A stretch of 59,440 nucleotides of DNA, counting the filler, from Dugesia japonica (taxonomy: Eukaryota): assembly GCA_001938525.1 (NCBI GenBank). It is 5 parts of 5 records of this genome, joined end to end, with 100 filler letters (N's around TTAATTAATTAA, not from the genome) between each part and the next. Parts side by side here need not be neighbours in the genome. Positions count along the whole stretch, not along the records: positions 1 to 12,089 come from MQRL01298465.1; positions 12,190 to 24,763 come from MQRL01575339.1; positions 24,864 to 36,719 come from MQRL01631903.1; positions 36,820 to 49,233 come from MQRL01591228.1; positions 49,334 to 59,440 come from MQRL01644172.1. The stretch is one strand, 5' to 3'. Of this stretch, positions 5,148-51,028 are shown in pieces. Made by a program: the position numbers and the translations under genes. Position 1 is the first letter of the stretch. Each line of letters starts with the position of its first letter. The notes under the pieces were generated by a model. The model was not told the origin of the DNA. It did not search any database and saw nothing but the letters and a program-made list of their open reading frames with translations.

Positions 5148-6670
5148 AGTAGATGGATACTAGTTCACGGGAACAGTACCTCCCCCCGCCGAATTTTTCG
5201 GTGTTTTGGTTGTTTAGGTGTTTTTTGATTTGTAGTATTTCGATTGGACGTTCTGAATATATTAAAAAGATTTCAAATTCGGGTTGGAACGGTCGAAGTT
5301 TAGCTCAGGAAGGTCAAGATTCGAAAATTTGTTTTTTAAATTTGTCTGTCAAATTTTATAGTATAGTTTCACATTTGGCATTGATCGTCTTAGAATTGAA
5401 AGCTAAACATTTTTTGTATAGGGTTTCTTATATGAATATGCTTGGTACTCTGGGAAAAGGTACTAGCGTACGGGAACAGTTGACCTTGTTTTTTGAATTT
5501 CTCGATCAGATCGCTATGTAAATGGTACTATTCGATTCAGAATAAAATTCTAAACATCCTTTGTATAGGGTTTGCTGTAGCAATATGCTTGGTTCAAAAG
5601 ATTGAAAATTGCCAGGAGCCATGTCTAACCAAGGATGAAAAATTATTATTTCAAGACATATCCTTGATAATCAAACAAATTTGATATTGTTGAGCTCAGA
5701 ATTAAAACTAAACATATTTCACATAGGGTTTGCTGAACAAAATTTGTGGTTTTCTCAGAAAAGGTACTAGCACACGAAAACAGTTAGCCTTAGTCTAAAA
5801 ATTTCTCGGCGAAAACTCATTGTTTGATAATGAAAATAATAACATTCGATTTCGAATAGAATTTTGAACATTTTATGCATAGGGTTTGCTGTAGAAATAG
5901 GCATAGTTCAAAAAATAGAAAATTCCCCGTTACCATGACCCACCGAGGATGAAAAATTTAACTTTAGAAATACTAATGATAATCAAACATATTTGATATG
6001 GATCTTCTAAGAATTAAAAGGTGAACATTTTTCTATAGGATTTGCTATATGAATATGGTTCGTTCTCTCAAAAAAGGGACTAGCGCAGGGGAGCAGTTGA
6101 CCTTGTTTTGAATAAAATTCTCCGAATGAATAAAATGGCATTCTATTTAAAAAAAAATTCTGAACATATTTTGTATAGGATTTGCTGTAAAATTATGCTT
6201 GGTTTAAAGAATAGAAAATTCCTAGTTGCCCTGACTCACCGAGGATGAAAAATTATTTTTTCAAGAAATACTTATGATAATCAAACAAATTTAATATTTT
6301 TGAACTCAAAATTAAAAACTGATTATTTTTCATGTATGCTTTGCTATATGAATATTTTTAGTTTCCAAGATAAAGGTATGTCAGAACGGGAACTGTTGAC
6401 CTTGTTTTATAAATTTCTCGACCAATACTTATTATATGGTCATGTAAATGACTGCTTTTAATTCAAAATAAAATTCAGAACATTTTATGTGTAGGGTTTC
6501 TTGTAGAAATATGCTTAGTTCAAAAGATAGAAAATGGTCAGGTGCCATTTCCCACCTTAAACAACAAAAATTATTTACTCTGAAAATACTTATAATTACC
6601 ACAGAAATTTGGTATTTTTAAACTTAGAATTAAAAACTGAACATATTTCATATTGGTTTGCTGTACAAAA
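5148..6670 (+). repeat. AGTAG-terminated element with an alternating A/B ~150-bp higher-order tandem array (~305-315 bp period)
   Basis: Starts agtagatggatactag...; tagggtttgct-type anchor recurs at ~5419, 5566, 5723, 5880, 6036, 6176, 6336, 6492, 6652; A units carry ggtactagc..gggaacagttgacc, B units carry gaggatgaaaaatt. Confidence 0.8.
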
Positions 6671-7049
6671 ATGCTTTCTTCTAATAATTTTATTTCATGT
6701 GTTAATTTTAATTCATTATAATTATATTTCCAAATTTTACATTTTACTTGAAATTCATGATTTTTCCAGTTAATGTCAAATTTTGATGATTTCTATAATA
6801 TAAATTTTGATTTACTTTTAAAAATAAGTGTTAAAATGTTTTACAAACTATTTCCATTGAAAATCTAAAAAACTGAAAATAATATAAAAAATTGCATTAA
6901 TAAAAAATTTAAAATATTAAAATATCACTATTGGCAACACATGTAAAATTTAACTTTTCAAAACTTTATAAAATTTACAAAATAAATGTATTAGCAACAA
7001 TAAAAACATACAAATTTAAATTACAAGATTTATTAATTAGGTTAGATTA

Positions 7050-8790
7050 CATTAATAAACACATTGGCTTTACTGTGTCACATGGGACTTACTTACTCTA
7101 TCCATTGATTTACTGAAACACTCTGGTTTTACTGAAATACATGAACTGTACTGTGTCCTCTTGTTACTCTATCCACTACTTTACTATATATACTGGCTTT
7201 TTGTAAACGTTGCTAAACTCTGTGAATTTGATAAACTAGAGGAATTAGGAAATTAATGAAAATTTGACAAATCTTAATAAAATTAGTCTATATTTTAATC
7301 ACGGGTCTATACATTTTAATGTAATTACTTATGGACTTAGTAAAATTTTCACTAAATCTATATGCATTTATAAATTCATTTTATACAAATACAATTTTGA
7401 CTTGAAAAATTACAAACTAATTTCTCAATGTACGATGGTTACAATTTGTACAAAGGTAATCTTAATTTACGCATAAATGTTTACAATTTACTCATAGCTT
7501 GATTCAATATACACATAGATGGTTACAATTTTAATTCATGGAGAGAAGCTATCAACTGAAAAATGAATAAAGTGATAAACAATTCATCAGTCTTCAGTTT
7601 TTACAGCATTGATATATCTCCAGCTATGATGAGAATGTTACAGTCATTTCTATCATTTTTTAGAGATGATTTACTTGAGATTATTTTGAATGACGTTCAT
7701 GGTAATGTAACGTTAAGCAAAATAGAAGAAAAGCGTTGAGAAAACATAAAATGTCGCCATTAACACTTGTAAATACAAAGAATGAAAAATTAATGAATTT
7801 TTTTTTGTATGAACAAGATGGTGGTTTAAAGCAGCATTACTACCAATCGCATTAGCAGTATTAGGACTCACAAATTTCTCATGAATAATGAGTCTGGGTG
7901 AAACAATATGTAGAATAACTTGAAAAGAAGAATGGTTTGAAGTACAGCATGTAATTGGAAAAGGTATAGTTTATTTAAATTTTATTATTAAAGTAATCAA
8001 TTGTTATTATTTATACAAATCCTAGGAGAATACCAGACTTAGGAGAAGATTTAGTATTCGAGGTATCAGAAATATATCTGTACCAGATTAAAGAAAGTCA
8101 AGAGTTGATAATAATGTATATGCTTTAATAAATCTTAGATAATAAATCTAGTTATTGCTTTTACTTCTAAGTTTTTGATCTAAACATTTTTCTTTTTGAA
8201 AAGGTATATAAGTTGAATGTATTTGAGGTAATTAGTGAAGTGATTAAATAGCTAATTGTATATTTTAAGTGAATTGAACAGATTTAGGTAAAGTAAGTAA
8301 GGATTTATGATAGAATAGTGTAATTTAGTCTTACTGTGAAACATTGGTTTACTCGATCCAATAGCTTTGCATATACAGACACATATAGACTTTGATGTGT
8401 TCATTGATTAATTTATTAATTTACTATATTTAGCTTGAAGAAAGTTTTATATAACTATGTAATTTGATTTCCTATATCATTAGTTGTAAAATGAAATGGA
8501 TTATAACTATATAATCATGTTAACCATCAGTAAACATTAGAATCAGCTTAGTGTTTATTTTAATTAAAATAGTGACTTTTGCTTATAGGGGACAAATTAA
8601 GCATATTCAATGGATTAAGTGGTTGTATTGGTTAGCTTGAACGACTAAATTAAAATAAATGAAAGCATTGGATACAATATGTAAGTCAAATACGCAAATG
8701 AATTGAATATATAGGTTTAATGAATGTATCGGGTGCATTGAATGTACTAGGTTTATTGATTGTATTGTGTTAAAAAATGTATCGAGTTTA
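7050..8790 (+). repeat. Composite dispersed repeat with ~20-bp internal subrepeats (copy 1, interrupted at ~7540-8320)
   Basis: 7264-7350 and 8400-8780 are inverted homologues of 43880-43970 and 42690-43130. Confidence 0.7.
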
Positions 8791-8873
8791 ATGATTTTTA
8801 AAAAAATGATTTTTGAAAAAATTTTAAATATTCAACTTGGCGATCGTAATTATAAAAAATGAAATCAACTTAC

Positions 8874-9161
8874 TAAAGTCCAATTGATGTTATAAACCTC
8901 AGAGGATTTATAGGATAAAATTTCGCCGCAGAATTGATGATCGAGAAAATATAAACGTTTTATTATAGCGGAATTGAGAACTGAATAATTATAAAGGAGA
9001 CTAATAACACTAGGATCAATGGGCAATGAATTTAGGGAGAAACAGAGTAGATCTGAGCTGAATGGACGAACATAAAGTATCGAGAAAATGATTAGAGAAA
9101 ACACGATAGTCTGGGGAGACGCAGTAGGCTCGGAGAATTCGAAAAGGAGTGTTACGCCCAT
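8874..9161 (-). CDS. Candidate first coding exon of an unknown secreted/membrane protein
   Basis: ATG at 9161 after in-frame stops, upstream acceptor ttgcag at 9215, hydrophobic stretch TIVFSLIIFSILYV, 96 codons ending at a phase-0 GTAAGT donor. Confidence 0.4.
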
Positions 9162-9859
9162 TTATTAACACGAGAGCTCGATGGGCTTTCATTCTTCTCG
9201 GATTTCGCTTTAAGCTGCAATTTTTAAATAAAAATTTGGTGGTCATTTAATTAATTTTTGGTTTTTAATTATTTTTTGTAATGATTCGTACTTGTACATG
9301 AAAAGCAATACATTTTGAATTTGCCTCATACATGAATTTTAAATACTTTTAGTATTTTGTAAATTATTTTATTAAAAATTATGGATGAAAGTAAAGATGG
9401 TATGATAATCACAGAATCCATTAAATTTAATATTTTTTTGTGGAGTTGTCTCAATGATTACTTACGTATTTTCAGGTTGCACAACTCTGCTACTATTTAA
9501 ATAAACACTACGTGATGAACTGACAATAACTGGAGACAATGGTTTCTTTTGGTGTGTTTGGAATAGTGTCATAAAGTGGACGAGTAAAATACTAGGAATT
9601 TTTTATGAGAACTCCGTAAAAGTGTGGACGAGAAAATTAAATTAAGTGTGGACTGGAATTAACAGACATCTTCCCTGGTCCATATTTCAGGAGAGGTGGA
9701 ACCAGAAATGATAGGCCACAGGCCGAAGAAGCATAATTCAAGTAATTTTTAACATACTGAATATATAGTTTTGCTGTTTAACAAGTTTGGATGGATTAGT
9801 TGATATTATTACTAACAAATTGAATGAATGAGCAAACAAATGTCGTGGATAAAGCTTAA

Positions 9860-9980
9860 CATCAATAGAGTAAGACGCGATACCACAAAGTCGCGCTGGA
9901 CCCAGGAAGAAGAGGAGCATGGCACCGAGGTGTTATAACTGCTTGGGGATTTTAGGTATGCCCCTAGACAAATGTAATAA
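9860..9980 (+). mobile_element. Gag-like CCHC zinc-knuckle relic
   Basis: RKKRSMAPRCYNCLG...C with a frameshift. Confidence 0.35.
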
Positions 9981-11119
9981 TATTGGAATGCAAAATAAAA
10001 GTGGTGGTAATGGTGCGGTAAATCAATTAAAGCCTAAAATCCCAACAAAATGACTAAATAATATTCAAGTTTTAAGTAATAAATTGCACGTTATTTAAAC
10101 AAACGGTAAACCGCCCAAGCACAAATTTTATAAACTAAAAAAAATATACAAAAAAATCCCATAAAAAGCCGGCTGACTGGAGTGTTCACATGCGCTACTA
10201 TCTATCTACTCTCAATCTGTGCATTTAATAAAAATGATTGGTTTTTAAATTTTTATTTCATATTTAAAAATATAGTTGTCCATTTTCCACTTCAAATTAA
10301 TTATTCCCAATGTGAAAATGTTTATTCTCAATTTGAAGTCGAAAATATAAAAATTTTCTTCTGGTGTCTAATTTCTGATTTATAATTAATCCTGATAATT
10401 ATATTATTTAATTAAATAAATCTTTCGGATTTCTCATGTGTCGTCTTAGGTTTAGGTATTGCTTAACATTTAGAAGCCTTAGAATTATACGCACTCACAA
10501 ATATCATACAAACATTCTTTGTTTACAATCAACATGCATATATTATTTTGCACATAACGTACAGCACATTTATATTAATTTAATCCAAATTTCTACTTAT
10601 TTACAAATTTTAATATTTTAAAATTTAATCAAAATATTAACATATATGCAATTAGAGTTTTTACATTTCAAAAATAGTTATTTATATTATATTGTACATT
10701 ATTTTTCTTTTTAAATCTTTATTTTATAAAACTAATCTAATAAATTTAACCGGTTTATCTACAGAAAAAGTTTTTTGAAACAAAACTAAAAATGAATTTT
10801 AATAAATACAAGTTGATTCTAACTTTCTCTATTCATCACTTTTGACAGAAAAATTCAAATAAATCAGCTAAAATGTTTTTTAAACAACACTGAGAACCAA
10901 ATATTGCATTTTAATTATAAAATTCATTAAATAAATTTTGATTTTGATAGTTATTTAATATCTTTTTGTTATTTAATATCTTTTTGTTCATTCAACTGTA
11001 TCTATAATTGGTTAAGTGTAATTAAATTCGTACAAAACTATGAATTTTATAGTTTTACCAAATAATGATTAAATAAACCAACTAACCAACAAATTTTTAT
11101 TTGCATTATATAATAATTT

Positions 11120-11414
11120 TTAATGATTATATTGTATAATTTGATCAATGCTTCTGTGAATAAAAATTACAGCAATAAAACACAGTGCCATTAAAATGGT
11201 ACCAAACACTAGAATTATTGTTTCTGATTTTGAAGTCGGTAACATAAAAAGTCGAACATATCTTTCACCAACGATACCGCGTCTGTAAGTATAGATTTCT
11301 TGGGAAGTTCCATTATTGAAAACTTTCAAACCGTCAAAGACATCACGATAATGAATCAAATTTGCTTCGACACAATAATATTTTTTTTTGATTGCTGAAT
11401 GTTTTATATATTCA
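11120..11414 (-). CDS. Terminal exon of a divergent nicastrin-like type I membrane protein
   Basis: Acceptor tttaaag at 11415-11421; EYIKHSAIKKKYYCVEANL...RLFMLPTSKSETIILVFGTILMALCFIAVIFIHRSIDQII resembles nicastrin RIFLxxSxxxExxxLxxG + TM + short tail. Confidence 0.5.
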
Positions 11415-12089
11415 CTTTAAAATATAAACAAATGAAAAATATGAAAAACAGAATATGTTAAACAATATATTTTGGAACTTGGGTTAATGTTTTTTGAATT
11501 TTTGTTTTAATCAAAAATTAATTAAATATATTTTTTCATTTTTAAAATTAAAAATTTAATAGTGTAAGTGAGGATTTGTTAAATTTATAATTTGCTTTGG
11601 TATTGTATATTTTTATTGTTACACTTGCTAGTATTTGTTAAAAAAATTGAATAAAGGATTGTTGTTTAAATATTGCGAATTTTGTTGAGCAGTTTTTTAA
11701 AATAAGACATGAGTAAATCTTTTAGAATTTTGCAAGAATTAATATTCAGATCCAAGGAATTTCTATAAGAAGAAAGAAACAATCAATTTATTTAATATGA
11801 ATAACATTTTGGAAACTAATTATAATTCTGTTATTGATAATAACTCTAACAGTGTAAGGAAATATTGAAATGAATTTTTTAAGTTAACGTAGACTTAATT
11901 AAATTTAATTTTAATATGATGTTGCAGTTAGTGTGGTCATTAGTATTAATAATTTTAAAATTTCGTGCATAAACTTTAAAGATGATTGGGTGACAGTTAT
12001 GTGTGAAGCATTAATGATAAAATAGATAAGGTCATTCTAGGCCAGTAGATAGATATGAGCGCACCAAATCAGGGCCTCTCGAGGGAGGG

Positions 12090-12189
12090 NNNNNNNNNNN
12101 NNNNNNNNNNNNNNNNNNNNNNNNNNNNNNNNNTTAATTAATTAANNNNNNNNNNNNNNNNNNNNNNNNNNNNNNNNNNNNNNNNNNNN
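12090..12189. other. Artificial assembly linker
   Basis: 44 N + TTAATTAATTAA + 44 N. Confidence 0.97.
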
Positions 12190-12860
12190 ATATATATATA
12201 TATATATAGTTGTTTAAGAGAGAAATTAATCACCCGCTATTTGTAGTATTGTTATTATATACCTTTCAAATGAAAAAACAAGAAAATTTACTACCAAAAC
12301 CTTAATCTACAAAATTCCTAATAGCTCTTTAAAAGATCTAAATCAGGAGGGTAGCTAGATTTTTTAAGATCGGGGCAAATTAAATAAGAAAAAAATTTCA
12401 TTGGGCAAAAAGTTATTTTTATAATTTGGCTGCATGAGACTAATTTGTCAATGTGTGGGTTGATTTTTGAAGTCGAGAATAAAAAATCAACGTATTTAAG
12501 CGTTTTTTCAAAATTGGTTACAAGGCATTTTAAAAAGTTTGGCCAGCCTTGATCAACATGAAGCAGTGATTAAAAGTTTAAATTATCCCAGTTTAAGTTT
12601 TATAATTTTATTATAATTACAATAATAAATAAATTTCAATAATTTTTATTATAATAATCCTATTTTCAATATGCCATATTTCATAGACCTTTTTACTCTT
12701 AAATTCGGCTTTGTAAAAATTTTTAGCCGAATTTAATTTAATTTGGAATTTTGTCAATTTTACTAAGGTAATATTTTTTTGGAATTCATTTAAAATATAA
12801 GCTTAGATCAAGATTTGTTTTCAAACAAAAAAAACAAATTTTGAAATTTCTGAAAAACAA

Positions 12861-13340
12861 TCAATGGTTACGTCCAACAATTATTCTCACTATAATTGAA
12901 ATTGTAAAATAATATTGTTTTCTTTATAAATTTTAAATAGTAATTTTTATTATTAATTATTTGACGAATTATAAGTTTATTTCAGTTGTATATTTATTGA
13001 ATTTATTTGGAAATTTTGTTATTAGAATTATTTATTTAATAAATATTTATGATAAAAGAAGATTTTTCTATGCCAGAGGTGTGTATGCCTAACAGTAATC
13101 ATTTGATAATAAATTTCAATTTTATTTATTATCTTTTACAATTACAATTATTGTTAAATAATTGTTGGACTTGATCGAATTTTTAAAGTTTCAGTAAATT
13201 AAAAACCTTCAATCAAAATGTTGTTTTATTTTTGTGGTTGTTGGCAATTGTAACTTTGTTATATTTTACATATAAAATATAAATTANAATTTTATAGTTA
13301 AAATTATTGCGAGAAATAATTTTGAACTTAGTCATTGATC
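12861..13340. repeat. Three Penelope-like pseudo-LTR tail copies (12861-12910 +, 13134-13177 -, 13290-13340 -)
   Basis: tcaatggtta.gtccaacaattattctc..taattg..attgtaaaa motif in both orientations. Confidence 0.55.
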
Positions 13341-14550
13341 ACATTTTTAAAGATTCAATAAATTAAACAGATTAGATGAAATTGTTATTTTCGTTTGCAA
13401 TTCGAATTTTCTAAGATCATCTTCAAGTATTTACTTTTTGATTTCTCTAAATAAATAAAAAAGCAAATCCCTAAACCATACTTGTCGAAAATTCAGATTG
13501 CTAACAAAAAAACAATTTTATCTAAATTTTTTTAATTTATTGAAACTTGTGAAAAGCAGTATTTTTTATTTCGCTTGAAATCTTCAGATTCTTTTTCATT
13601 TTCAATAATAAAATGAATTTTAATTTCATGTATTTTCTTACATTAAATATATTCTTGTTGTTTTTCTACAATTTTTTATTTTAACTCATCGAAGAATTGA
13701 ATTCACAACTAGTTTCCATAAAAGATTTATTCATAAAACAAAAACTATGCATATAAATTTAATTTTTTCAAACAAATTCAAAAATTTATATTCGAAACAA
13801 AAAAAAATATCAGCCTTTTGAAAAATTTTTCATTATTTCAGTTTATTTTAAATTTTAATAAATAACGTAAAATTTAAAAATACAATACAAAATATATTTT
13901 GTTGTAAATCGGAAATTTCAAAATTTTACAAATTACAGTAAAATTATAAAAATTATAAAATTTTAATAGAAAAAAACTTTATTAAAAATTTTATATTTAA
14001 CAAAAATTATAAATTTCACATTCGTTTTCTGTAATCAAAAATAATTTAAAATTCGTTTGCTTTTAACGGATAATTTTAAAATTTATTTTAAAAATTATTT
14101 TAATGATTCAATTTAAATATTTAACAAATCTGATTTTAATAAATTACGTTTTAAAATACAAACTATTTAAATCTGCTTTTAAAAATAATCTCACAATCAC
14201 AATATTTAAAGATGTGTAACAAGCAGCCATTTTGAAAACAAGTGAAAAAAACCCTATTGCTTCAAAAGACTCAGATCTTTAAAATAATTTAAATTGTATG
14301 AATTATTACAAGTCCTTAATTAATTTTACAAATAGATTAAAGCAATGTTATCACCTGTACGGCATCTAAAAATATAGTTTAAGTGCCAATACTAATAGTA
14401 TAAATAAATTTTAAAATATAAAAGAAAAGTAATAATTACAAGACTAATAATTATGCTGCTCATTTTCAAAATCGATTAACTCCAAATAGCACAAAAAGAT
14501 AATATAATATTAAAATTCCAATTAAAATATAAATGCAAATAAAAGTTAAG

Positions 14551-14771
14551 TTTTCATTAAACTAATAGCTTCGATAAAAATGATATTTTTTTTGGTATAT
14601 ATTCGAAATTTCGATTATTGTTTTCAGGAGAAGACAATAATCGAAATTTCAAATAATTACCAAATAAGAAATAAAACAACATTTTTATTGAAGCTATTTA
14701 TTTAATGAAATCACAAATGCGATCAATGGCTAAGTCCAACAGTTATTCTCGTAATAATTGTAATTGTAAAA
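14551..14771. mobile_element. Inverted pair of Penelope-like pseudo-LTR fragments forming a ~160-bp palindrome centred on a hammerhead remnant
   Basis: Arms 14551-14624 and 14630-14710 (gaaatttcgattattg / caataatcgaaatttc core), followed by the pLTR tail motif. Confidence 0.6.
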
Positions 14772-15679
14772 CATTAAGTTGTCTTGATTCTTATTGTTAG
14801 GGAAACGTATTATAAATATAAAAAGTTATGATTATATCAAGAGCTTTGACACTAAAGTGCTAAAAAATCAAAGTTGATTTTATATATTTGGTTTGAGACT
14901 GGCTTAACTAAAATTATCACAAAATTAAATCAATATAAGAAATTTTAATAAATAGTTTCACCTTTCAAAATGTATATCTTATTTACTAGAACGATTATTA
15001 TTACTAAATAAAATGTTTTAATTTTCACATAGTGAAAAATAAAACAAAATCGAGGTGAGATGCACTATTTATTTTAATTGTTACGGACATAGATAGTATG
15101 CCAATTATAGAAGTTATATTTATTACTGTTAATGGATATAACTGTAGAATATTTTATGCAAGTTTGTAACTATTTTATACAAAACAACATTAATTTTATA
15201 CATAAAATGAGTTTATGTATATAATGAACTCATTAAATAAAAAGGGAAACCAGAATAACAGCACGATAAGTATCTTTTATTGGAATCTTTAGTGAAGACT
15301 AGTTTAGTTCAATTAATTTCGCCAGAATTGATTATTGATATGTAATTACTTTTGAAATTTACTTTTGAATAAATTCACGAAGTTCATGCCACCTTTGATA
15401 GGTTTGTTTAAGATCTGCAAAAATATGGCTTTCTCGAATTTATTAACAAAGAAAATTTTGACAATACCAATTTTAAACATTACCAATACAATATTTAAAA
15501 CTTGATTCTGATTGGTTGAAATTTTCAAGGTCAGTGGTATAGTATGCTTGATTCTGATGAGTCAAAATTTTCAAGGTCATATTAGTTCAAGGTCACTGGT
15601 ACATTGTATACTCGATTCTCATTTGTTGAAATTTTCAAGGTCAGTGGTACAGTATACTCAATTCTAATTGGTGTAATAT

Positions 15680-15975
15680 AAACTATAACAAAGAAAATGC
15701 ACCACAAATACAACACGAATGCAACTATAACAAAGAAAATGATACACTAATGCAACTATTACAAATAAAATGATACAAGAATTCAACTATAACAAAGAAA
15801 ATGCAACACAAATGCAACTATAACAAGGAAATTGCAACACGTATTCAACTATAACAAAGAATATGATACACTAATGCAANNNNNNNNNNNNNNNNNCAAC
15901 ATGAATTCAATTAAACAAAGAACATGAGTCATATTTGTGCAACATTAATGCAATGGAAACAATGAAAATGCACGA
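15680..15975 (+). repeat. ~31-bp minisatellite (caactataacaaagaaaatgcaacacaaatg)
   Basis: About 8 tandem degenerate units, with an N gap. Confidence 0.9.
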
Positions 15976-16349
15976 TAAATCAAAGTTTTAATAAGGTTTC
16001 TTTAGAATATTATGGGATTTTACAGGTTATCTATATAGTTTTATATATTCTTAAAAAAGTTTTAAGATTTTATTGGTTTGAAAATGTTTTTAAAGTTGAT
16101 AAAATTTTAATTAAACATGTTTTTAATTAATAAATCTTAAATTAATATTAAATTAATTTTTGTTTAAGTATACTAAATTAAAATTGATTACTAATTAATT
16201 ATTAATATTATATGGAAATTATTTATTTTTGTTTAACTGAGCTAAATAAATAAAACGGTAGATGACCTTGAAAAATCTATTATAAAATAAGTGACTTTTT
16301 ATTTATTAATTTATTTTAATGATTTTTACTAATTTTAGATATTAACAGA

Positions 16350-16716
16350 ATGAATCCAAAGAAAATTATTTCAACAAATATGGTAAGTTTAATTAATTAA
16401 TTTATTGTTATNGATTTATATTTTAGACTGAAAAAAATGATGTGTCTAAGGAATTTTATGACAATATGACAAAGAAATTTATGAAAGAGGTTAGATTTAT
16501 TAAGATTATATTTTAGGTTAATAACTTTATTTAATAAATTTAAGTTAATGAGTTTATTTTAATTTGATTATAATTTCATTTCAATTTTTATTGTAATGAT
16601 TTAAACTTTATATAATATTATCAAATTTTACTTAATTTAATGATTTTAATTGAAATCAATGATTTAACTTAATGATATAACTTAATTATTAGGAAAAGAA
16701 GCACATTTACAGATAA
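16350..16716 (+). CDS. Candidate three-exon 39-aa micro-gene inside the TIR element (16350-16382, 16427-16489, 16693-16716)
   Basis: GT-AG introns, all phase 0, give MNPKKIISTNMTEKNDVSKEFYDNMTKKFMKEEKKHIYR*. Confidence 0.4.
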
Positions 16717-16907
16717 CTTATTTTGTTATTTAAACTAATTAATTTGTACTATTAAAATCTAATTTACAATTTAGATCCAGATTTAAACAACTGTACATAA
16801 TGACTGTAATTATCCATGTTTTATCAACAATAAATTTTATTGTTTTAATTAGTCTTTTCATTTTTCTTTTATATATATTTTTAAAATTGTCTGAGAAGCA
16901 TCTAATC

Positions 16908-16992
16908 TTAATATTGCCTGGAGCAAATAATATTGATGTTAATATTGCCCGGAGCAATTAATATTGATGTTAATATTGCTCGGGGGAAATTA
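16908..16992 (+). repeat. 30-bp tandem repeat x~3
   Basis: ttaatattgcc(t/c)ggagcaa.taatattgatg units. Confidence 0.85.
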
Positions 16993-18199
16993 ACTTCAAA
17001 ATTTGAAAATTTAAACAAATTAAGTTTCCCAATAGATGTTCTATAAAAAAATCCATAAAAATAAATAAATCACTTAATTTAAATAAAAATCTGAAAATCA
17101 TTTAATTTAAACAAAAAAATTTAAACATTAAAACAAATATAAATATTAAATATTCCCGGACGACAGTTGCCATGGAAATTACCTTGACCTACTTTCATTT
17201 AACCTTGAAATATTACACTAATTAGAATTAAGTATACTGTACCATTGACCTTGAAAATTTCGACCAATGAGAATCGAGTATACAATGTACCGGCGACCTT
17301 GAACTAATATGACCTTGAAAATTTCGACCATCGAGAATCAAGTATACTCTACCACTGACCTTGAAATAATGACTTTAAAAATTTCAACCAATAAGAATCG
17401 AGTATACTATGCACCAGTGACCTTGAAAAAATTTGACTCTGAGGAGGGGGAGGGTGGCACAGTGCGCCACTTTCTACTTACTCAACTTAGATTTTTTGTG
17501 GTTTCTAATGCATCTGTATCAACAAAAATTATATGCAATAAATATGCATACAAATTTATACATCCCGTCATAATAAAACGATGCTATCAAAAAGACAAGG
17601 AAAAGTGAGAAGAAAAAATGACACGACACAAAAGCGACCAGGAAAGTAGAATAGCGAGATTGAGTGAAAATAATTGATAGCAGTAAAAAAAGGAAATATA
17701 AAATCGACGAGGGAGAAGAGAATATGAAACAGTAAATAATACTTTCTGGAAAAGAACGAAAAAATTATTTATTATACGTACATTAAATTATCATTTTATG
17801 TAAAGAAATAAATTGATCACAAGAAATAATTAGAATGAATAAAATGAAAAAAAATTAATTATTTAATTAATTAATTGTCTCAATCCACAGTACACACAAA
17901 GCTACTAAAACACATCTATAATGTGCCACTTCACCTTGTTTTGATCATACTCTAAATTTCCTTCAAGACGATTGAACAGTATTAAATAATTAAATCAAAT
18001 AGGCATCTGCCTGAAAATGGACTACAACAATGACTGTTAGCTCTTCAACAGGCTCCAGAAAACTCTGTTTCTATTTCCACAGTTTATCAATTCACCATGT
18101 GGTCTGAGCAGATCAAAGTAGGTAAATGAGCTTTATCTATTTCTAGACTATCGGCGAAAAATTTTTGGAGTTTTTAGATTTTGAATAAACGAAAAATAT

Positions 18200-18243
18200 T
18201 TATATTTATATTTATATATTATTATTATTATTATTATTATTAC

Positions 18244-19440: not shown

Positions 19441-20293
19441 CAGGCCCGGTCCTAGGGCCGATCCAGCAAGACCATGGTTCGGGGCACCAAATATATACAA
19501 AAAAAATTAAATCAAACCTTCACAAGATATTACGGCGCTATGAGACTTCAATTTTTTATAGTGAATTGAATTTATGGTATGTACATAAAAAAAAACTCAT
19601 TATAGTACGATGTTTAATCAATATGGTAAATATACGTATGCATGTACATTCAAGTAAAAAAATTACGCGTATTAATCGTAATTATCCTTGGTAGTCATAG
19701 TAACCGTAAATATTATTGTAATTGTTAAATGAGTTTGAAGTACTCATCTGATCATTTATGTCAAAACTCATTTCCATACAAGATTTATTCAAACAAATTA
19801 AAATTCCTTGTTTTAATTGGTGATAAATTTTCAAATATTAAAATTTTAAGTAAAATTTTGACTTTATTAATTAATCGCCATTTAAAATTTAAAACAGAAT
19901 ACTCATTCGTTATTTAAATTTAAATATTTCTAAATAAAAAGATTTTAAGAAAAATGATCTCCAGCCACACAAAAATTTTAACTCACTTTTCAAAACATAC
20001 TCACAGTAATACTGTATCCAAACATCCTACACAAGTATTAAATTTTTAACATAACACGTTTCTCTTTTGTAGATAAAAAATACACCAACATTTGATAGTG
20101 CATAATTTAGTGGTTTCCTTATTTCTGCATAAAGATTGTTAAATGTAAATTTTTAATAAAGAGTTGAAGTTTTAATAATAAAATAAAAATATCCATTAGT
20201 TATTCCTATTTTTGGTAATTTTGCTCGTTAAAGTGAATGTGGCGCGATTTAAAGCTTTGGCCTAGAGCGCCTCAAATGCTCAGATCAGGCCTG
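19441..20293. mobile_element. hAT-type MITE
   Basis: CAGGCC...GGCCTG termini with GC-rich subterminal ends; TSD degenerate. Confidence 0.5.
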
Positions 20294-37509: not shown

Positions 37510-37564
<55 letters not shown>

Positions 37565-37675: not shown

Positions 37676-37676
<1 letters not shown>

Positions 37677-37865: not shown

Positions 37866-40800
37866 ATAATTGCCCTTCTTAAAAAACGTCTAAGTTTTTC
37901 CACATTTCTTTCTAATCGCTATCAATTTTCTTCTTGTACCGCATACCGTCTTTCGTGAGTTCTCTCAATTATTCGATAAGGTCCTTCAAATCTGTCTTGA
38001 CTTTTATTTCTTGTTTCTATCTTGATGAGTACAAAATCGCACACTTTGAATTCTCTAATTGTATTCATATCTGAAGTGTTTTCTTTAGTTTTATTTGAAA
38101 CGTCTGACTCATACCATTTTTCTCTGCTAATCTTCTTTCCAAATACGATCTCAGCTGGGATCACTCCAGTCGTCTTCTGCTTTGTTGCATTCATTGTAAA
38201 TTCTATTCGCGGTAAAAGATCTGCCCAATATGTTGTCTTTCTTTCCTGAAGTGTTGCATTAATCAAATCTCGAATTGTCCTGAACTGTCTTTCAATTTGT
38301 CCGTTTGCATTATGATGATAGGGACTCGAAAATCAAAGTTTAATATCTAACTTCAGTGCAAACTTTCTCATAACTTTGAATTCAAAAGCTTTGTCACAAT
38401 CAAATTTTATTTTTCTTGGACTTCCAAATCTCAATATCTACTTTTCAAAAATAGCTTTTCGTATTGCTTCCTCGTCTTGTCTAGGCAATGGTATAAGAAC
38501 CAAATATTTACTGTACTGGTCGATTATTCCAAGAATGTATTTTTTCGTTCACTTGTTTCCCGCATTGTCCCACATATATCTGTGAATATGACTTGAAACA
38601 AATTTGTAGCTTCTAATCTCTTTACGTTCTCTTTAGTTACTCTTGTCATTACTTTGGTCTTCTGACAAATTTCACAACTACGAACTATTTTCTGTATTTG
38701 GCTACACAAATTCTTTGCAATGTATTTGTTTCTCATATATTCGTTCACCTTTTCCACTCCTGCATGACATAATAATTTATGTACTTCTTCTATTGTCTTA
38801 TGTATTTTGTCCTCCGAAATTTTTATTTTCTTGAATTAATCTTTGTCCTAAAAAATGTATAATTGGTCTTCTTTTTCCTTTTCAATCATGTTTAGTATTC
38901 TCGTTTTAAGCTTCCCTTTCTTAGAATCTTCATGTGACATTTGACATTGTACACATACCTCACATCTTGGTCAAGATAACATATCTGCATTGCCATGTTC
39001 AATTCCTTTTCTATATTCCCAAACCATGTCTAGACTACTCAGATGATTAATCAATGTCTAAAATTGTGATGTTATTGGTTTTTTCGTCGTCATCATTAAC
39101 GTTAGAGCTTTATGATCTGTTCTAAGAGTAAATCTTCTACCGCGCAAATAGTGTTTGAAGTGCATGCAGAAATAATAAACAGCCAACAATTCTTTTCGTG
39201 TGATGCAATATTCCTTTTCATGACTCGTCATTGAGTGTGATCCATAGGCAACAACTCTTTCTCTTCCTTCTTTATCTATCCGTGACAATACTGCTCTAAT
39301 TGTATCAAAACTGGCATCTGTATCTAATATTAATTCTTTGTTTATGTCGGTAAAACATAATATTGATGCAGTCATTAGAGATTGTTTCAGACCCTCAAAA
39401 GTATTGTTTATTTCATCTGCCCATTCTAATTTTTTGTTGCTTGGCCCTCTACACAACTGCTCTAAACTCCTTGATTTTCTTGCGTAGTTTTCTATAAACA
39501 TTCTGTAATAATTACAAATTACTAAGATACTTCGTAACTTCTTAACACAGTTAGGTTTGCCAAATGTTCTTATTGCTTCTATTTTAAACGGATCAGTTCT
39601 GACACCCTCCGTGCAAATTATGAGTCCAAGAAACTTGATTTCGCTTTGAAGAAACTTACACTTTTCTGGATTAATTCTTTTACGAGTTTTCATTATTTCC
39701 GTCAATACTCTTTCAATTACTTCATATTATTGATCTTTATTGTTTGTAAATATCAGGATGTCATCAAGATAAACCATGGTTCCATTGATTCCGCCTACCC
39801 TTTTTGTCATCATCTCTTGAAATGACCCTCGTGCCGCTGCGATGCCAAATAGCATTCTATTAAAACAATATTGTCCATGCTTTGTTGAAAACGCCGTTTT
39901 TTCTTGAGATTCTTCTACGAGCTCTACCTGAAAGTATTTCCCAAATCTATTGAACTGAAATATTTGGCTCCATTTAACTTGTCCAGCATTTCATTGACAT
40001 TAGGCATAGGAAAGACTGTTCTTTTCATTACTGCATTCAATTGTCTGAAATTCAAACATATTCTTATGTATTTTCTTTCTTTTTTTCAAACACAGATTAG
40101 TGAGGTATTCCATGGAGAGTTGCATTTTTGAAAAGGTTTTAGATAGCTTCTTCAATTTTAGATTCTAAGTTTATTAGTTGNNNNNNNNNNNNNNNNNNNN
40201 NNNNNNNNNNNNNNNNNNNNNNNNNNNNNNNNNNNNNNNNNNNNNNNCCTACATCTCAGTTATCTACCATAAAAGCATCTTCTTTACTTTCAATTATTTT
40301 CAATAACCGTTGATCCTCTTTAATCTTCAAAGTATTTAAGGCTCTTGTCAATTGCTCTCCTTTTTTAATTTGTCTTCCAAATTTTGCTTCAAAATTGCAA
40401 ATCTAATTTTCGACTTTTTCATCCATTTTGCTATCAACCTCTCGCATAAGCTGGTATTCAAATATCTTCTGCATATTTATTTCTTCTATAAGATCTGGTG
40501 TTACTCTTTCAGCAACAATGAACGTAATCTCTTTGCAAACTTCATAAATTATCACTCCAGTTCTAATTTTTCCAACAATTTTAAGTGAACTATTATCTGC
40601 ACAACGCAATTTTTCATCACTCATTTATAAATTTACTTCTCGTAATTTAATAAAACAATTCAAACTCATCACGTTAATTCTAGCCACTGTATCTAATAGA
40701 CATTCAACTTTATTTCCTTGAATTGATACCGTAACACTTGGTCTGCCTTGCAATGTATGGTACAAAATATTTGTTTTCTTTTCTGTTTCAACTGTTCTAA

Positions 40801-41608
40801 CCCATTCTACTTTTCTATCATCCTCAAAATCTTTCCTCTTTAAGAATCTGTATACTTTTTCTGTAACTTTTCCGATATTATCTTACTTTTTTACCCCTAG
40901 AGAATATATACTAACTTCCTTTAACAATGGATTGCTCCAACGAATTCCTCCACTGGTGGAGCCCTGCTTTTTGAGAACTGCCTTTTGAGAGTGCCTTTTG
41001 GAGTCACTTTCATGTACTTCCTCATATCCATCGCTTATGCTGACATCTTCATCTGCAATCGCATGTACTCGATTATATTGGTATTTTGATATTTCTGCAG
41101 TCATAAATTTCTCATTTGTTCTTTTCATTTTTAAATTTGAGTAGCACTTTTCTGATCTATTTCCACCATTACCACATCCTTTACACCTTACTTCTTGATA
41201 TAACCTTCTAATATGGCCAACCTTTCCACATCCAATACATTTTATTGGTTTTTTATTTGGACAATCTTGACTTATATGTCCTGTTTTATGACACGTCCAA
41301 CACTCTACCACTTTTTTTGATCGGATAATTTGCTTTAGCATGACCAATCCTATGACATAACCAACATTTGCTATTTTGTCCTTCCTTTCTTTGCTCCACA
41401 TGTCTATTCACTGTATGATTTACTGGTTTCGGATCATTTCAATTTGTAACTCTCACGTAACTTCTAACTGCATCAACTTGATCTCTTTTTTTCTCTACTC
41501 AATCTACTAACGTCACTGTTTCTTCAATTTCTTCTATAATCTCTCTTTTTCGCAAAGTCACTTCTTCTTCAACTTTTTTGCTATCTGAGCAATATACTAG
41601 CATCTTTG
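37866..41608 (-). mobile_element. Ty3/Gypsy LTR retrotransposon internal region (gag-PR-RT-RH-IN), decayed
   Basis: Gag CCHC knuckles CWTCHKTGHISQDC, protease LLDT, RT YLDD, RNase H DTDAS..KELLA..TDHKAL, integrase CEICQ..DICG, GPY; purine tract at ~37871-37885. Confidence 0.95.
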
Positions 41609-42649: not shown

Positions 42650-44420
42650 TGTGAAAACACTTGCATACTTTCTATCTGAACTAATGCAAATCACTAAACT
42701 CGATACATTCAAATAACTCAATACAATTAATAAACCTAATACATTCAGTAAACCTGATAATTTCATTAAACCTATACATTCAATTCATTTACCTATTAAA
42801 CTTAAATCTTGTATTTAACGCTTTCATTTATCTTTATCTAATCGTTCAAGTCAATCATTACAGCTACTTTACACATTGAATATTCTTAATTTGTTAAATT
42901 AACTATAAATCTATAAGTAATAGTTAGTATTTTCATTAAAATTATGACTAAGCTGATTGTAAGCTATACTGAGTGTCAACATGATTTTATAGTCATAATG
43001 CATTTCATCTTACAACTATTGATATAATTAATCCAATACAATCAATTTACATAGTTATTTATTAAGTTATATAACAATTTTGTCAAGACAAATACAGTAA
43101 ATTAATCGATTAATCAATGAATACAGTAAACCAGTGTGACTCAGTAAACAAGTGAACACAGCAAAGCTTAGGAATAGACTAAGCAAATGAGTACAGAAAC
43201 CCAATGTGACAGATTAAAAACAATGGGATTCAGTAAATCAATGGATAGAGTAAGCAGATGATAGCAGTAAGTCAATGCGATAAAGTAAGCTAATGTGACA
43301 CAATAAACCAATATGTTTCAGTAAACTAATGTTTAAAAGTTAAACCAATGAACACAGTTAACCTAATGTGATGTAGTAAAACAAGTGTAATGTAGTAAAG
43401 CCAAAAAACAACACATATAATGTACAAATTGTAGTAGGCTATGTGTAAATTACAACCAGCTATATGTAATTTGCTGACACTTATATACAAATTGTAGACA
43501 CATATAAACAAATTGTCACCACATAAGTGCAAAATATAGTAAACCATGTACAAATCTTTGCAAGCTGTGACTACATTATAACAATCAATGAATAAATAAT
43601 AGCAAGTTATTAACAAAATTGTCGTTAGCTGTGTACAAATTGCAACAACCTATGTGTAAATTTTGGTCACATATGTACAAATTGTTACAAGCTATGAGTA
43701 AATTACAACCACTTTTGAATAAATTGTAGACACATATAAGCAAATGATAACCAACTATATGTAAATTGTAGACATCTATTGTACATTGATACATTAATTT
43801 TAAATTTTTAAAGTTTGAATTTTATTTAAATAACTTTATTTTATTAAATTTCTTAAAATTTGCACAAAATATTAATAAATATATACTAAGTCCATAAACA
43901 ATTTCATTAAATATAAAGACCCGTGTAAAAAATATAGATTAATTTTATTAAGATTTGTTAAATTTTCATTAAGTTTAGTAAAATTAATTAAATTCACGAA
44001 CATTCATCGAATATGATAAGTTAGATAGATTAATATTATTCATTATGATTTCTTTCATAGAGTTGAGTGGTTGTATTTACATAATAAACAAATAGTTATA
44101 GTAAAATAATGCATAACGAGTAAATGGATACTATGATCCAATGTAATACAGTGAAGCCTATGTGTTACAGTAAAACCATTGTGACACAGTAAAGCAATTG
44201 GGTTTTGGTAAAGTCAATGTGTTAGAGTTAACAAGTGAACACAATAGACCAATATGACACGCAGCTTATTAAAGTAAAGCCAATGAACACAGTCAAGCCC
44301 ACGTGTTGCAGTAAAATCTATGTATTACAGTAAACTAATGGATAGAGTAAGGAAATTGGTGCAGAAAGCCAGTGGATTTAGTAAACTATATAACATTGTA
44401 AACCAATGAATACCAAACAC
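42650..44420 (-). repeat. Composite dispersed repeat (copy 2) with ~20-bp cagtaaaccaatgtgaca and acaaattgtagaca subrepeat arrays
   Basis: Inverted homology to 7050-8790; internal short-period repeats. Confidence 0.75.
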
Positions 44421-44865
44421 ATAGATAGTATTTTATCATAGTACATGCTCAATTTAGCCAATCGAAGTAAATGATTTGATTATTTAACATAACAATGATT
44501 TAATACATTTATTTTTAGTAGAACATTATCATCCAGCTCAAATTTGTTCAAAAAATTATGAAAAACTTTACTGAAATAAATCTTCTAATTTAAATTTTGT
44601 CTTTAATTTATCAATTTTTATAGTTTTGTTATTTTCATAACAAAATTTTCATTTTTGTTATTTTCATAATGTTAATTTTATATGATAAATAGTGTACATT
44701 TGACTTTAAATAAAGCCTTTTGATATTTGTTGTAAGGTGTATAATTTTTATTGTTATTTTGTGTTTTATATACATATGTTAAATTTTGTACCTATTTATA
44801 ATTGTTTTAGCAATGTTATAATATGTTATAGCATAATGCAATGTTATATCCATTATATAACATAA

Positions 44866-45057
44866 CGGATAACTTCCAATAGTATGACTCATACTAGTAA
44901 ATAGTATGACCAAAAAAGTTATTTTTTGAATTTTCATTAAATTTGGTCATAATATTTGGATTAAAAATATTATAAAAATTATTATAACAATGGTCATATT
45001 ATTTTTTAGTGTACAAAAAAAATTGAAAAAAATAGTCATACTATTAGGAGTTACCTG
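44866..45057. mobile_element. Small MITE
   Basis: TIR taacttccaatagtatgact / agtcatactattaggagttac. Confidence 0.65.
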
Positions 45058-45179
45058 TTAAAAATAATTTCTAAATTTTAAAATTACAATTAAATAATTT
45101 AAATGACTTAAACAATGAAAAACATGTGGAAATATTTTAATAGCTTTTCACGAAGAAAGAAGTGTTTCACGATAGTAAT

Positions 45180-45540
45180 TCGTTAAACAATATATTGGCA
45201 GTTTTTTTATTCTGATTTTTTGGTTTAAAAATAAAATTAATTAAATGATTATGTTCCTGAAGAAGACTATTGTCGAAAATTTGAACTTTATTACAAATAA
45301 ATTTTGTTTTGATCGAAGCTTTATCTTATTTTAATGAAATCTCAAATCCGATCAATGGTTAAGTCCAACAATTATTCTCACAATAATTGTAATTATAAAA
45401 TTATAAATATAATCAATAATTTTATTTTATTTCAAGAACCAAGCATCTTTAGCTATAAGTCCGTCAGACAATTCATAGGTAACATTTTATTCTGATTCTT
45501 ATGATGCGAAAGTCAAAGTTATGACTGATAAATTTAAAGA
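45180..45540 (+). mobile_element. Penelope-like element relic
   Basis: Hammerhead-like motif, pLTR tail 45348-45400, then AISPSDNS...DSYDAKV resembling the PLE IxPADK...DYxxK RT motif. Confidence 0.55.
45251..45288 (+). ncRNA. Minimal type I hammerhead ribozyme-like motif in a Penelope-like pseudo-LTR
   Basis: GTTC-CTGAAGA-a-GAC(TATT)GTC-GAAA-ATTT-GAAC: both core boxes, stem II and a 4-bp stem I. Confidence 0.6.
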
Positions 45541-45544
45541 TAAA

Positions 45545-46284
45545 TTTCAATGTAGCACAGTACGCTACTACATATTCTGAGAGAACTAAGCTTATTAATA
45601 TAACAAACCCTATATATAAAATAAAGAACTTTAAATTTTAAGGCTATTGATACTAAATTTAACAGTATATGATAATTCTGGACTGAGAAATAAATTATTG
45701 AAATTTTTAATTTAAACATTTCTAATTCGATTTTCGTATGAAAGAAAGGGTTTTCGAAGATTTTGCTTGAATATGATCCCGACCTACTTTTTAATAATCT
45801 ATAAAATGATAACGAGTATGATTTGAAATCTTTTAGATCATGAGAGGGTACTGTTCCAGTGCGCTAATATCTTTTCTGAGAGAACTATAGCATGTTTTGA
45901 GAAAAGTAAAATTTTATTCCTAAAGAATTTTAAATTTTGAATTCAATGGTATAAAATATTTTATGAATTATTATTATTTTAATTATATAATTATATATTA
46001 TTTCCTGAACGAAGCATTTTGTACTATAGGTTCTTTAGACGATAAATAAGTAACAATTTATTCTGATTTCAACGATACTAAATTTGAAATCGTACGATAT
46101 AAATTTACCAAAAAGCTTTGCACCACAAATTAAAATTTTTGATCTTCTTGAGCCAAAATGCGACCAATAAAATTCGAAATAAAAAAATTCTTTTAAGTAA
46201 TCGTAACGATGAATCATAATCCAACATTTCTAGATCACTTAATCGGTGGGGATGGGTGATCCATTGCATTAGTATCTACAAACT
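45545..46284 (-). mobile_element. Second copy of the AGT-terminated array element (same family as 5148-6670)
   Basis: Minus-strand start agtttgtagatactaatgcaatggatcacccatccccaccga; internal ttctctcagaaaagatattagcgcactggaacagtacc and atagggtttg units. Confidence 0.65.
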
Positions 46285-47387: not shown

Positions 47388-48089
47388 GTTTACTGTATAC
47401 AACTCTATTAGTTTACTGTATGATATTTTATTAGTTTGTTTTTGTATAAAATTAAACTTGGTTTGGCTTAATTACTTTTACAATTGCTTTTATTGCGAGA
47501 ATAATAAAAAAATAAATAAAAATATTAAAAAAACATTTCATCGAAAAACATTAATATATAAAAATCAAATAAATTGATTTCAAACATGTCAGTTGTATTT
47601 GTCATCTCATTGGGGTTCAAATGACATCAAATTGGATACAGTTCGATTAAGAAATTTTACTAAAAAACCATTTCTTTTAATATTTGAAAGTTCTTTGTTT
47701 ATTGTTCTTTGATTTTCTCTTAAAGTATACATTTTTTAAATCAGTACTTTATAAAATATATAGGTACTCTTTGAATCTTTATCGATTGGTATGAGGATCA
47801 AGTCAAATTATAATTATTTCGATTCTGTACAGAGTTTTTAAAATTTAAAAGTTTTAATAACTTCTCCTCAGTAGATCAAATTGAACTTCTGAGATAGCAA
47901 TAATGTTTATCATCTGATTACGAGTCCAACAATATTAAGTGTGTCATCATATCACGTATCTACTCGTTTTAAATTGAATTTTAAAAAGTGTGTTACAGTG
48001 TACCACTATCTACCCATTCNNNNNNNNNNNNNNNNNNNNNNNNNNNNNNNNNNNNNNNNNNNNNNNNNNNNNNNCGCAGTGTATGGTCA

Positions 48090-48809
48090 GTTTTCGATTT
48101 TCTTTCAGATGATTATAGTGTAAAGTTGAAGACCTTAAACCACCACCATAAACAGTCAAATTTCGGGTGTTTTTAATTTTACGGAAAAGAAGCCATGTTT
48201 TTTAAAAATGTTTTAAACTTTTAATCGATTGGTAATAAAAACTCGATGACTGTAATGGAAAACCATTGAAAGAGATACTTTTTTTAAAAGCCTTTAAAAG
48301 TTCAATTCGTTTATAACTTTTTACTGTTATGTATGATAAAGTTCTCATTTATCCCATTGAGTTTGCTCTAAAATCTTGTANNNNNNNNNNNNNNNNNNNN
48401 NNNNNNNNNNNNNNNNNNNNNNNNNNNNNNGTTTTCGATTTTCTTTCAGATGATTATAGTGTAAAGTTGAAGACCTTAAACCACCACCATAAACAGTCAA
48501 ATTTTGGGTGTTTTTAATTTTACGGAAAAGAAGCCATGTTTTTTTTTAAATGTTTTAAACTTTCAATCGATTGGTAATAAAAACTCGATGACTGTAATGG
48601 AAAACCATTGAAAGAGATACTTTTTTTAAAAGTCTTTAAAAGTTCAATTCGTTAATAACTTTTTACTGTTATGTATGATAAAGTTCTCATTTACCCCATT
48701 GAGTTTGCTCTAAAATCTTGTATAAGGCTAGAAAAAATTGTTTAAATCGGAACTATATTTCGGCCGCAAAGGAAGGGGGGCGCAGTAACGTAAAGTTTGG
48801 AAACCACTG
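48090..48809 (+). repeat. Near-identical ~290-bp tandem duplication across N gaps, ending in an hAT-like TIR (gtttggaaaccactg)
   Basis: 48090-48380 vs 48431-48722. Confidence 0.8.
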
Positions 48810-49233: not shown

Positions 49234-49333
49234 NNNNNNNNNNNNNNNNNNNNNNNNNNNNNNNNNNNNNNNNNNNNTTAATTAATTAANNNNNNNNNNN
49301 NNNNNNNNNNNNNNNNNNNNNNNNNNNNNNNNN
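49234..49333. other. Artificial assembly linker
   Basis: 44 N + TTAATTAATTAA + 44 N. Confidence 0.97.
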
Positions 49334-49567
49334 CGAAAGACTAGGACCACGGGTTATGAAAGAATTGAAACTGCAAGATGTCACAAATGCATTTGGTACT
49401 ATGGATTCCTACGATAATATCTCTGAGGAAGATGAAATGTTTATAATTGAATAAATATTTTTGATTGATTTTTTTATTTATTATAAGACACCCCCTCAAT
49501 ATAAGGCATGTTTGAAATCTGACAATTTTTTTTATAAGGCATGTCTTATAATAGGGGAAACACGGTA
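49334..49567 (+). mobile_element. 3' end of a pogo/Tc2-like DNA transposon
   Basis: Acidic C-terminal remnant, ataagac/ataaggca subterminal repeats, ggggaaaacacgg-TA end. Confidence 0.55.
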
Positions 49568-50230
49568 CTACATGAAAAGTTTACAGATTTCTTCATGAAT
49601 ATATACTGTTGACATTGAATGAATATTTTTTATCAATATTGCAGACAACAGCAATAGACATAAATATAATAATGAACGATTCCATCTTGGAACTTCAATC
49701 AAATTTCCCGTGCAATCTAAACAAGACCCATTATGACATCTTAAAAAATGTTTTGAAGATGACTGAAGACTTTCTGGATTAAATGTTATGTTAATAAATG
49801 TTTTATTGGATAATTGTTTTCTTTTATTTATTTTTTTTATAATTAGTAAATTAATAAGATTCTTTAAGTAGTAAAATAATAAATGTTTCTTATTGTAAAT
49901 AGTTTTTAATTGTGAATGCAATAGGCATGCAATAGAGATGCAAAACAGTAACACGTGCCTGGGAATTTTGAAATATGCAATATTCATTCAATTGGGTTGC
50001 AACACAACAACACTTGCCTGGCAATTTTAGACTGCCCCATCCATTGCAAAATATCAAGCTATCCCGTCTACTGCAAAATCTAAAGACTACTCCAATGTTT
50101 TTAATAATAAATGCAATAGGCATGCAATGGGATACCAACACCGCGATACGTGCCTGGGAATTGTAGTCTGCTCAAAACATACCAAGGATGTCACATCCCT
50201 TGCAAAATATCAATACTGTGCCATATATAA
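49568..50230 (-). pseudogene. Decayed tandem Cys-rich (RING-finger-like) gene
   Basis: Two ~195-bp DNA repeats encoding IPRHV..C...IACLL plus HFLRCHNGSCLDC..PR. Confidence 0.4.
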
Positions 50231-50299
50231 ATATCAAATCTGCTTAAAAATACATCTATTTTTCATAAAAAAAAACATTTTAAATAAATACTTCATTTT

Positions 50300-51028
50300 T
50301 TATTAAAAAATCATAAGTTCAAAATTTTTATGAAAATCAACATTTTTCAAAAAATTATTACGTCACCCACACCACACAGAAAAAATTCATTTAAATTTTA
50401 TAAAATCCGATAATTAATTACCTTTCTACCCATATACCTATCCCCAGGAGGAAATTTTTTAACACCTTTATACTACTTACAAATTATTGACCAATCAAAT
50501 TATCGATTAAAAAAACTTCAATTTCCCTCAACTCCTATACCATCATCCTCCTCATTACACCATCTTTCCAACAAGCAATCAACCATCAAAATTCATCAAC
50601 TACTATACAAACATATACCCTCCCAAAAATCAACGCGCGATAACTCATCAGGTGATCCAGTGCGCTACCACCCCTTGTAGACCAAACCATTCATTCTACC
50701 CCATAAGTTTTAAAGACAATATATAAGCAGTATTTTGGTCTCAACACACCCATATCATAATACCCACAAAAAAGTGAAAATCAATAACTACACAGTTCAA
50801 TCACATGCACGTCCACTCTTACACACCCACCACCTCCACCAAACCAACTTTAACTTACACACAACAACCTTCTAAACACACACAAATTTTAAAATCAAAG
50901 TTCCACACACCAACAGCCCCAAGTTCAAAATATTTGATCCCGATCAAAAATCTTTTTTAAAAAATTTACAAAAACTAGTATATCAAAATTCTCGGTGGGG
51001 TGATTCAATGCGCAACTATCTACCTACT
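50300..51028 (-). mobile_element. Polinton-type terminal region
   Basis: Minus-strand start AGTAGGTAGATAGTTGCGCATTGAATCACCCCACCGA; internal reiteration ggtgatccagtgcgctacc at ~50651-50670. Confidence 0.6.

Follow-up and report, generated by a model that had tools for sequence, protein, structure and literature searches.

The DNA analysed here (hereafter the window) is a stretch of 59,440 nucleotides from Dugesia japonica (GCA_001938525.1), made of five scaffolds joined via N44-spacer-N44, with the spacers at 12090, 24764, 36720 and 49234, and it carries a set of repeats with related ends that resemble those of the Maverick (Polinton) elements of animals. Related end strings had been claimed in a preliminary description at 5148(+), 17482(-), 46284(-) and 51028(-), on four different assembly pieces; all four are present at those positions, on four of the five scaffolds, although among these four the exact string AGTAGGTAGA is read at 51028 only. 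Two further clear ends, absent from the earlier list, emerged from a relaxed scan of the window, at 10210(-) and 12044(+). Each of the six clear ends opens with AGT, mostly as AGTAG(A/G); AGTAGT is matched at five of its six bases by four ends and at four by two, and any two of the six have 16-25 of their first 32 bases in common. AGTAG agrees with five of the six bases of (AGT)2, the commonest end of vertebrate Mavericks according to PMC8097293.

Related ends at the boundaries of abundant repeats

The end at 5148 (5148-5190, +) starts with AGTAGA and continues into a C-rich tract. Facing it across 5063 bases is the end at 10170-10210 (-), and the end at 12044-12089 (+) is followed for 46 bases before the scaffold stops. 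A worn end, nearest in sequence to that at 17482, lies at 47990-48018 (-), where it adjoins an assembly gap. At 50380-51028 (-), a feature whose start coordinate is approximate, one end is seen, with a G/T-skewed interior behind it; this end is nearest to that at 10210. Although the GC content of the window is about 26%, five of the six clear ends have G or C as the base immediately outside AG, an observation made post hoc that possibly reflects a target preference.

A 12-letter end pattern, derivable from the 5148 and 51028 ends alone but composed after 10210 and 12044 had been seen, has four matches in the window, against 0.01 expected, and two of the four are 10210(-) and 12044(+). A 24-position profile, trained only on the four ends listed in the preliminary description and set against a null of 10 shuffled windows, scores 10210 at 25.9 bits and the worn end at 48018 at 21.6, both above the best shuffle (18.1); the score of 12044 (17.9) does not exceed it. 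This last result, together with the fact that the first patterns were composed after the ends had been seen, speaks for the view that the likeness of the ends is due to chance or to an assembly artefact. Against that view stand the number of pattern matches, the fact that 10210 and 48018 outscore every one of the 10 shuffles and the independent contigs that bridge the junctions at 5148 and 12044.

Seven of the 12 sequencing runs listed contain part of 4200-12089, and the contigs of four were aligned there; about 20,500-23,600 contigs per run align at a level of at least 80%. Summed contig depth, which does not equal copy number and is taken from depth tables available in part, amounts to 37,000-218,000 across 4200-6829 and to 2,300-4,400 in the bin containing the 10210 end; outside that end it drops, within about 1 kb, via 940-1,400 and 78-153 to 16-28 at 11038-11300, a segment covered by single contigs of 881-1254 bases, and it climbs again, in the bin that holds the 12044 end, to about 20,000-28,000. 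One contig spans 4975-5300, across the 5148 junction, with one difference, and 11823-12089 is covered by contigs of three of the four runs with no differences. Both junctions therefore exist in DNA and are not assembly errors, and the explanation by chance or artefact, largely refuted by these contigs together with the pattern and profile results, is in our judgement highly improbable. The ends are real boundaries of abundant repeats. Many dispersed copies exist, namely two diverged ones in the window and thousands of related contigs per run, among which short and full-size copies are inseparable.

Maverick genes outside and inside the 5148 end

Adjoining the 5148 end on its outer side is a decayed Polinton/Maverick gene block (1786-5147, -), comprising an ATPase, a small basic gene, an internally deleted integrase and two probable minor-capsid copies, and every one of these genes carries stops or frameshifts. 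Polinton genes had been reported at 1791-5147, and the short elements were thought to be mobilised in trans by the Polinton to which those genes belong. The genes are present, but all are broken and their place is on the outer side of the 5148 end, and the relic therefore cannot be the helper; moreover, its small basic gene is only a diverged match to the copy inside the element. We consider it likely that the relic is instead the target into which the 5148 element inserted.

The A32-type packaging ATPase relic (4298-4930, -) has 142 matches among 151 candidates, the best at 75-76% identity and most annotated PF04665. The alignment of 28 ATPase relatives led to a comparison set of 31 metagenomic Polinton loci, in which the gene order is ATPase, then small basic gene, then rve integrase; the order in 1786-5147 is identical, and its broken small basic gene (3696-4012, -), which follows the ATPase, is matched by proteins of 18 of the 31 loci. 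In Pfam, the Polinton relic pieces of the window gave no family at E<0.05. What we take from its motifs to be the minor-capsid gene start is present in two copies, 79% alike, at 1968-2144 and 3043-3218; two probable minor-capsid genes, likewise in tandem, are found in one of the metagenomic loci (L005), where the largest frame (10212-13865, -) has Endonuclease_7 (endonuclease VII) as its sole domain match. The genes labelled polymerase, capsid and protease in the metagenomic loci are likewise presumed to be such from their motifs. In two other loci (L007 and L011), accessory genes of a host-like kind lie upstream of the ATPase, and one of the seven post-ATPase proteins scanned has a match to adenovirus core protein X at E 0.0037, below the cut-off and no more than a hint. 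In viral contigs, none of the three candidates found with the ATPase alone was confirmed, and the ATPase alignment gave none of 223. On the far side of the relic, it is adjoined at 650-1785 (-) by the 3' part of a non-LTR (non-long-terminal-repeat) retrotransposon, with a zf-RVT match.

Inside the 5148 end, at 7560-7880 (+), lies a second copy of the Maverick small basic gene, an orphan that has neither ATPase nor integrase next to it. The gene is complete, although frameshifted. It is matched at E<=1e-4 by proteins of eight of the 31 loci, and by those of three more without the low-complexity filter, and it aligns with the outer copy at 3696-4012. By its position, it is probably the gene called 'pm' in PMC8097293. 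Of the genes of an autonomous element (polymerase, capsid, protease, ATPase and integrase), none was found between the ends, and only the small basic gene lies inside any of them. Sequence descent from a Maverick is carried, for the 5148 copy, by this gene and, for the 46284 copy, by homology to the 5148 copy, and is shown for these two alone, 10210 not included; the Maverick link of the elements at 17482, 51028, 12044 and 48018 is the end motif alone.

Interiors of the elements

Each end had been said to continue into a different interior. The 5148 and 46284 elements do not conform to this, because six blocks, 71-88% alike and amounting to 942 of 5063 bases, are common to both, with the four strongest in colinear order, and we therefore regard them as one family; their outer flanks do not match each other. 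The sister copy occupies 42688-46284 (-), begins with a worn AGTTTG end, is without the Maverick gene and is seen with one end. The 300-bp arrays noted behind 5148 are borne out by a unit spacing of 314/296/316 in the subterminal array at 5324-6680 (+), the units of which, of about 300 bp, contain a variant of end bases 11-31; the variant repeats at 5461, 5765 and 6078 and, in the sister copy, at 45869. Arrays of shorter units, common to the 46284 copy, follow at 7028-7531 (+), and the last homology between the two copies is the block at 8396-8797 (+), which pairs with 43125-42688 at 75%. Near 6600-7050 there are low-complexity, AT-rich matches that we did not treat as homology, since control regions show them too, and a 100% match between the flanks of 10210 and 12044 was rejected as an artefact of overlapping query stretches.

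An alternative takes the ends for what is left of full-size Mavericks, belonging to several families, after decay in place: the deletions would postdate insertion, the short forms would never have moved, and 5148 and 10210 would be ends of two separate elements. In its favour, the sister copy contains nothing that matches 8800-10050, the scaffolds measure about 10-12.6 kb and so fall below the length of an intact element, the 5148/10210 pair has neither a target duplication nor any special likeness (see below), and 96% of vertebrate Maverick loci are degraded, 2,166 of them without discernible inverted repeats, as stated in PMC8097293. However, the neighbours of the orphan gene at 7560-7880 are, on either side, arrays that the gene-less sister copy also has, whereas in the adjoining relic and the metagenomic relatives they are ATPase and integrase. 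Moreover, a contig in three of the four runs connects 6595 to 7828 with 47 other letters between, and another copy therefore has a different deletion, with a junction of its own, in the same framework. We regard decay in place as unlikely.

Some further segments of the 5148-10210 interval were inspected. Just after the orphan gene, 7880-8330 shows GT..AG intron-like gaps, and its first piece, which has no Pfam match, recalls what we take to be a protein-kinase start; a captured host fragment is possible. The segment at 9723-9985 has a high depth and a Myb-like and a cysteine motif that are reminiscent of the start of an R2/NeSL-type retrotransposon, although no homologue was found; one frame of 9723-10085 had none among longer proteins, which is weak evidence. 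In Pfam, neither 7880-8330 nor 9723-10085 gave a family at E<0.05, and the same is true of 8800-10100. A separate, palindromic family resembling MITEs (miniature transposable elements with inverted repeats) occurs at 103, 12837, 13119-13548, 14552-14780 and 45307-45413, one copy lying inside the 46284 element.

The element at 15493-17482 (-) is of another make. It is foldback-like, 2 kb long, with internally repeated inverted arms, the right one ending in AGTAAG and the left one missing its outer 80 or so bases. Both features previously described behind this end were recovered: the CAAGGTCA inverted repeat, at 15500-15679 / 17210-17403, in which arms of about 200 bases agree at 86% as far as the lost left outer end, and the spliced micro-gene at 16350-16716 (+), with three exons (16350-16382, 16427-16489 and 16693-16716), GT/AG sites and both introns in phase 0. 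Internally repeated arms are characteristic of foldback-type elements such as Galileo, which the 15493-17482 element resembles in anatomy, but no transposase or typical duplication was seen in it, and it shares its end motif with the family that bears the Maverick gene.

That anatomy and the micro-gene count in favour of a different origin, in a cut-and-paste family other than Mavericks, foldback or Mutator-like, with the Maverick gene and spliced fragments of a host-like kind taken up as cargo. The ends do deviate from published Maverick motifs, and Maverick DNA is so abundant that capture is plausible. It is difficult, however, to reconcile this origin with the AGT at the start of six of six clear ends, or with a captured piece that is an entire Maverick gene from start to end; in addition, no transposase was found beside any end in searches confined to the 31 loci and to Pfam scans of chosen stretches, and with the end shifted out by one base there is no TA at five of the six flanks. 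A capture by such a family is, in our view, distinctly improbable. A Tc1/mariner-type MITE was also rejected, TA preceding CAGT at only one of the six ends (5148). Helitrons have a TC start, a hairpin and CTRR end and no inverted arms, and a Helitron identity, at which no specific test was aimed, is not suggested by the inverted arms and AG ends seen here.

The RING-like relic proposed at 49571-49987 found no support, with no Pfam family at E<=1, and Rfam gave no matches. At 35634-35991 there is an element of about 360 bp with 48-bp arms at 94%, the left end of which is like the family motif and the right end not; its arms and those of the 17482 element have GGTCA, ATTGG and C-rich tracts in common. 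As a complete mini copy it was rejected, because the motif is absent from its right end, a 6-bp duplication is lacking and its score is within background. In viral contigs, a 20-letter version of the end pattern had no matches and a 17-letter version had eight, all internal, at least 247 bases from a contig end, and taken as chance. Two related Gypsy-like retrotransposon relics, 74% alike, lie at 25252-26830 and 37900-41590, and inverted arms of 14-15-bp units at 27753-29228 surround a broken reading frame reminiscent of a Mutator-like transposase. A tandem duplicate across an N gap (48090-48380 / 48431-48722, 97% identical) is likely an assembly artefact. Over 82% of its length, the gene at 55596-57548 has 100% identity with hnRNP L of Dugesia japonica, which identifies the host as this planarian or a form very near to it, and the hnRNP L coding sequence, 55596-57551, is one frame of 651 codons without introns.

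Origin of the elements and comparison with known systems

On balance, we favour as probable the explanation that these are old, non-autonomous and internally deleted Maverick/Polinton derivatives, which intact Mavericks at other places in the genome would have copied and inserted with their enzymes. We infer that full-size Mavericks would lose their core genes through deletion between the subterminal arrays, and that the shortened forms would keep ends still recognised by the protein-primed polymerase of the helper, as origins, and by its retrovirus-like integrase, as sites. Such forms would spread in trans and then decay, and the remaining ends in the window would represent further Maverick lineages. 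Of the mini-Maverick family first proposed, the shared motif at real boundaries and the Maverick ancestry of the 5148 and 46284 copies are retained; the helper, the four distinct cargoes and the RING relic are not.

Several observations weigh against an origin by deletion and spread in trans. An exact (AGT)2, (AG)3 or (AC)3A motif is present at none of the ends of the window. The only pair of ends facing inwards is 5148/10210, and a check for target duplications found none of 2-10 bases between their flanks, GTTTAC and CTCAAT; no partner with a matching flank was found on its own scaffold for any of the six ends, and no complete mini element with an insertion footprint was found in the window. 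The end at 10210 is about equally close to that at 51028 (25 of 32 bases) and to that at 5148 (24 of 32), and inverted-arm alignments are equally good for 5148/10210 (68 identities in 106 columns) and 10210/51028 (67 in 109). With arrays at one end only and no special likeness between the two ends, the pair may therefore be two separate broken elements. The missing duplication, an outcome that the preliminary description had itself named as refuting, is weakened as a refutation, because 5148 and 10210 may not belong to one element. A junction joining 5147 to 10211 was not among the 15 joints listed in the contigs (1159 further joints were unlisted). Finally, proteins of the 31 Polinton loci had no match at E<=0.05 in the interiors behind 46284, 51028 and 17482 or in 7880-10210, and no comparable ends were found in those 31 loci, where the three motif matches were all internal.

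A wider proposal is that Dugesia possesses a large set of Maverick satellites, with several unrelated interiors (the 300-bp arrays, the foldback with its spliced micro-gene and the G/T-skewed arm) behind Maverick-type ends, one lineage of which keeps nothing but a small basic core-like gene, and that these, rather than full-size elements, form much of the genome-growth-linked Maverick expansion of the genus. We put this forward tentatively and think it unlikely. That the small basic gene is the one retained may hint at a role in packaging. If the explanation by derivatives spread in trans is true, a set with shared ends but different interiors would show which cis-signals are the minimum for Mavericks to replicate and integrate; to our knowledge, these signals are still inferred and not measured. 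It would also name a component of the DNA/Maverick expansion reported, by automatic classification, for Dugesia genomes (preprint 10.64898/2025.12.11.693146). As matters stand, the copies in the window are old and broken and their kind of element is already known, and the gain is modest.

Vertebrate Mavericks have (AGT)2, (AG)3 or (AC)3A ends, arms of 46-1447 bases and 6-bp duplications (PMC8097293). With animal Mavericks and Polintons (PMC8097293, PMC3014272), and with adintoviruses (PMC8502044), the window has in common AG-starting ends near (AGT)2, an A32-type ATPase, an rve-type integrase, a small post-ATPase gene and a predominance of degraded copies. Unlike them, the elements of the window have no polymerase, capsid, protease or integrase between their ends, and no 6-bp duplication was found; the arms of 5148/10210, about 30-100 bases at 64-75%, compare with the 46-1447 bases of intact vertebrate Mavericks (PMC8097293). 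Polintons are targets of piRNAs in Schmidtea (PMC8532177), and in the anole genome no non-autonomous Polintons were found (PMC3014272). Tlr1 is sometimes termed a non-autonomous Polinton (PMC5499653). Further background is found in PMC6431247, PMC9683012, PMC11662393 and 10.1101/2025.02.07.637071.

No published description of planarian Maverick end motifs was found, nor any of Dugesia Maverick ends or non-autonomous families, in a search made without Repbase, supplements and most subscription papers. Non-autonomous Polintons are an already known kind, of which a Dugesia member was not found in print. Tlr1 retains an integrase and a helicase, unlike the elements described here. Families of non-autonomous Polintons are reportedly held in Repbase and in the 2006 work of Kapitonov and Jurka. 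The elements of the window differ from non-autonomous Polintons in that their interior consists mostly of nested tandem arrays and that a copy with both ends and a duplication was not seen among them, but they are alike in their kept ends, in the loss of core genes and in the requirement for a helper.

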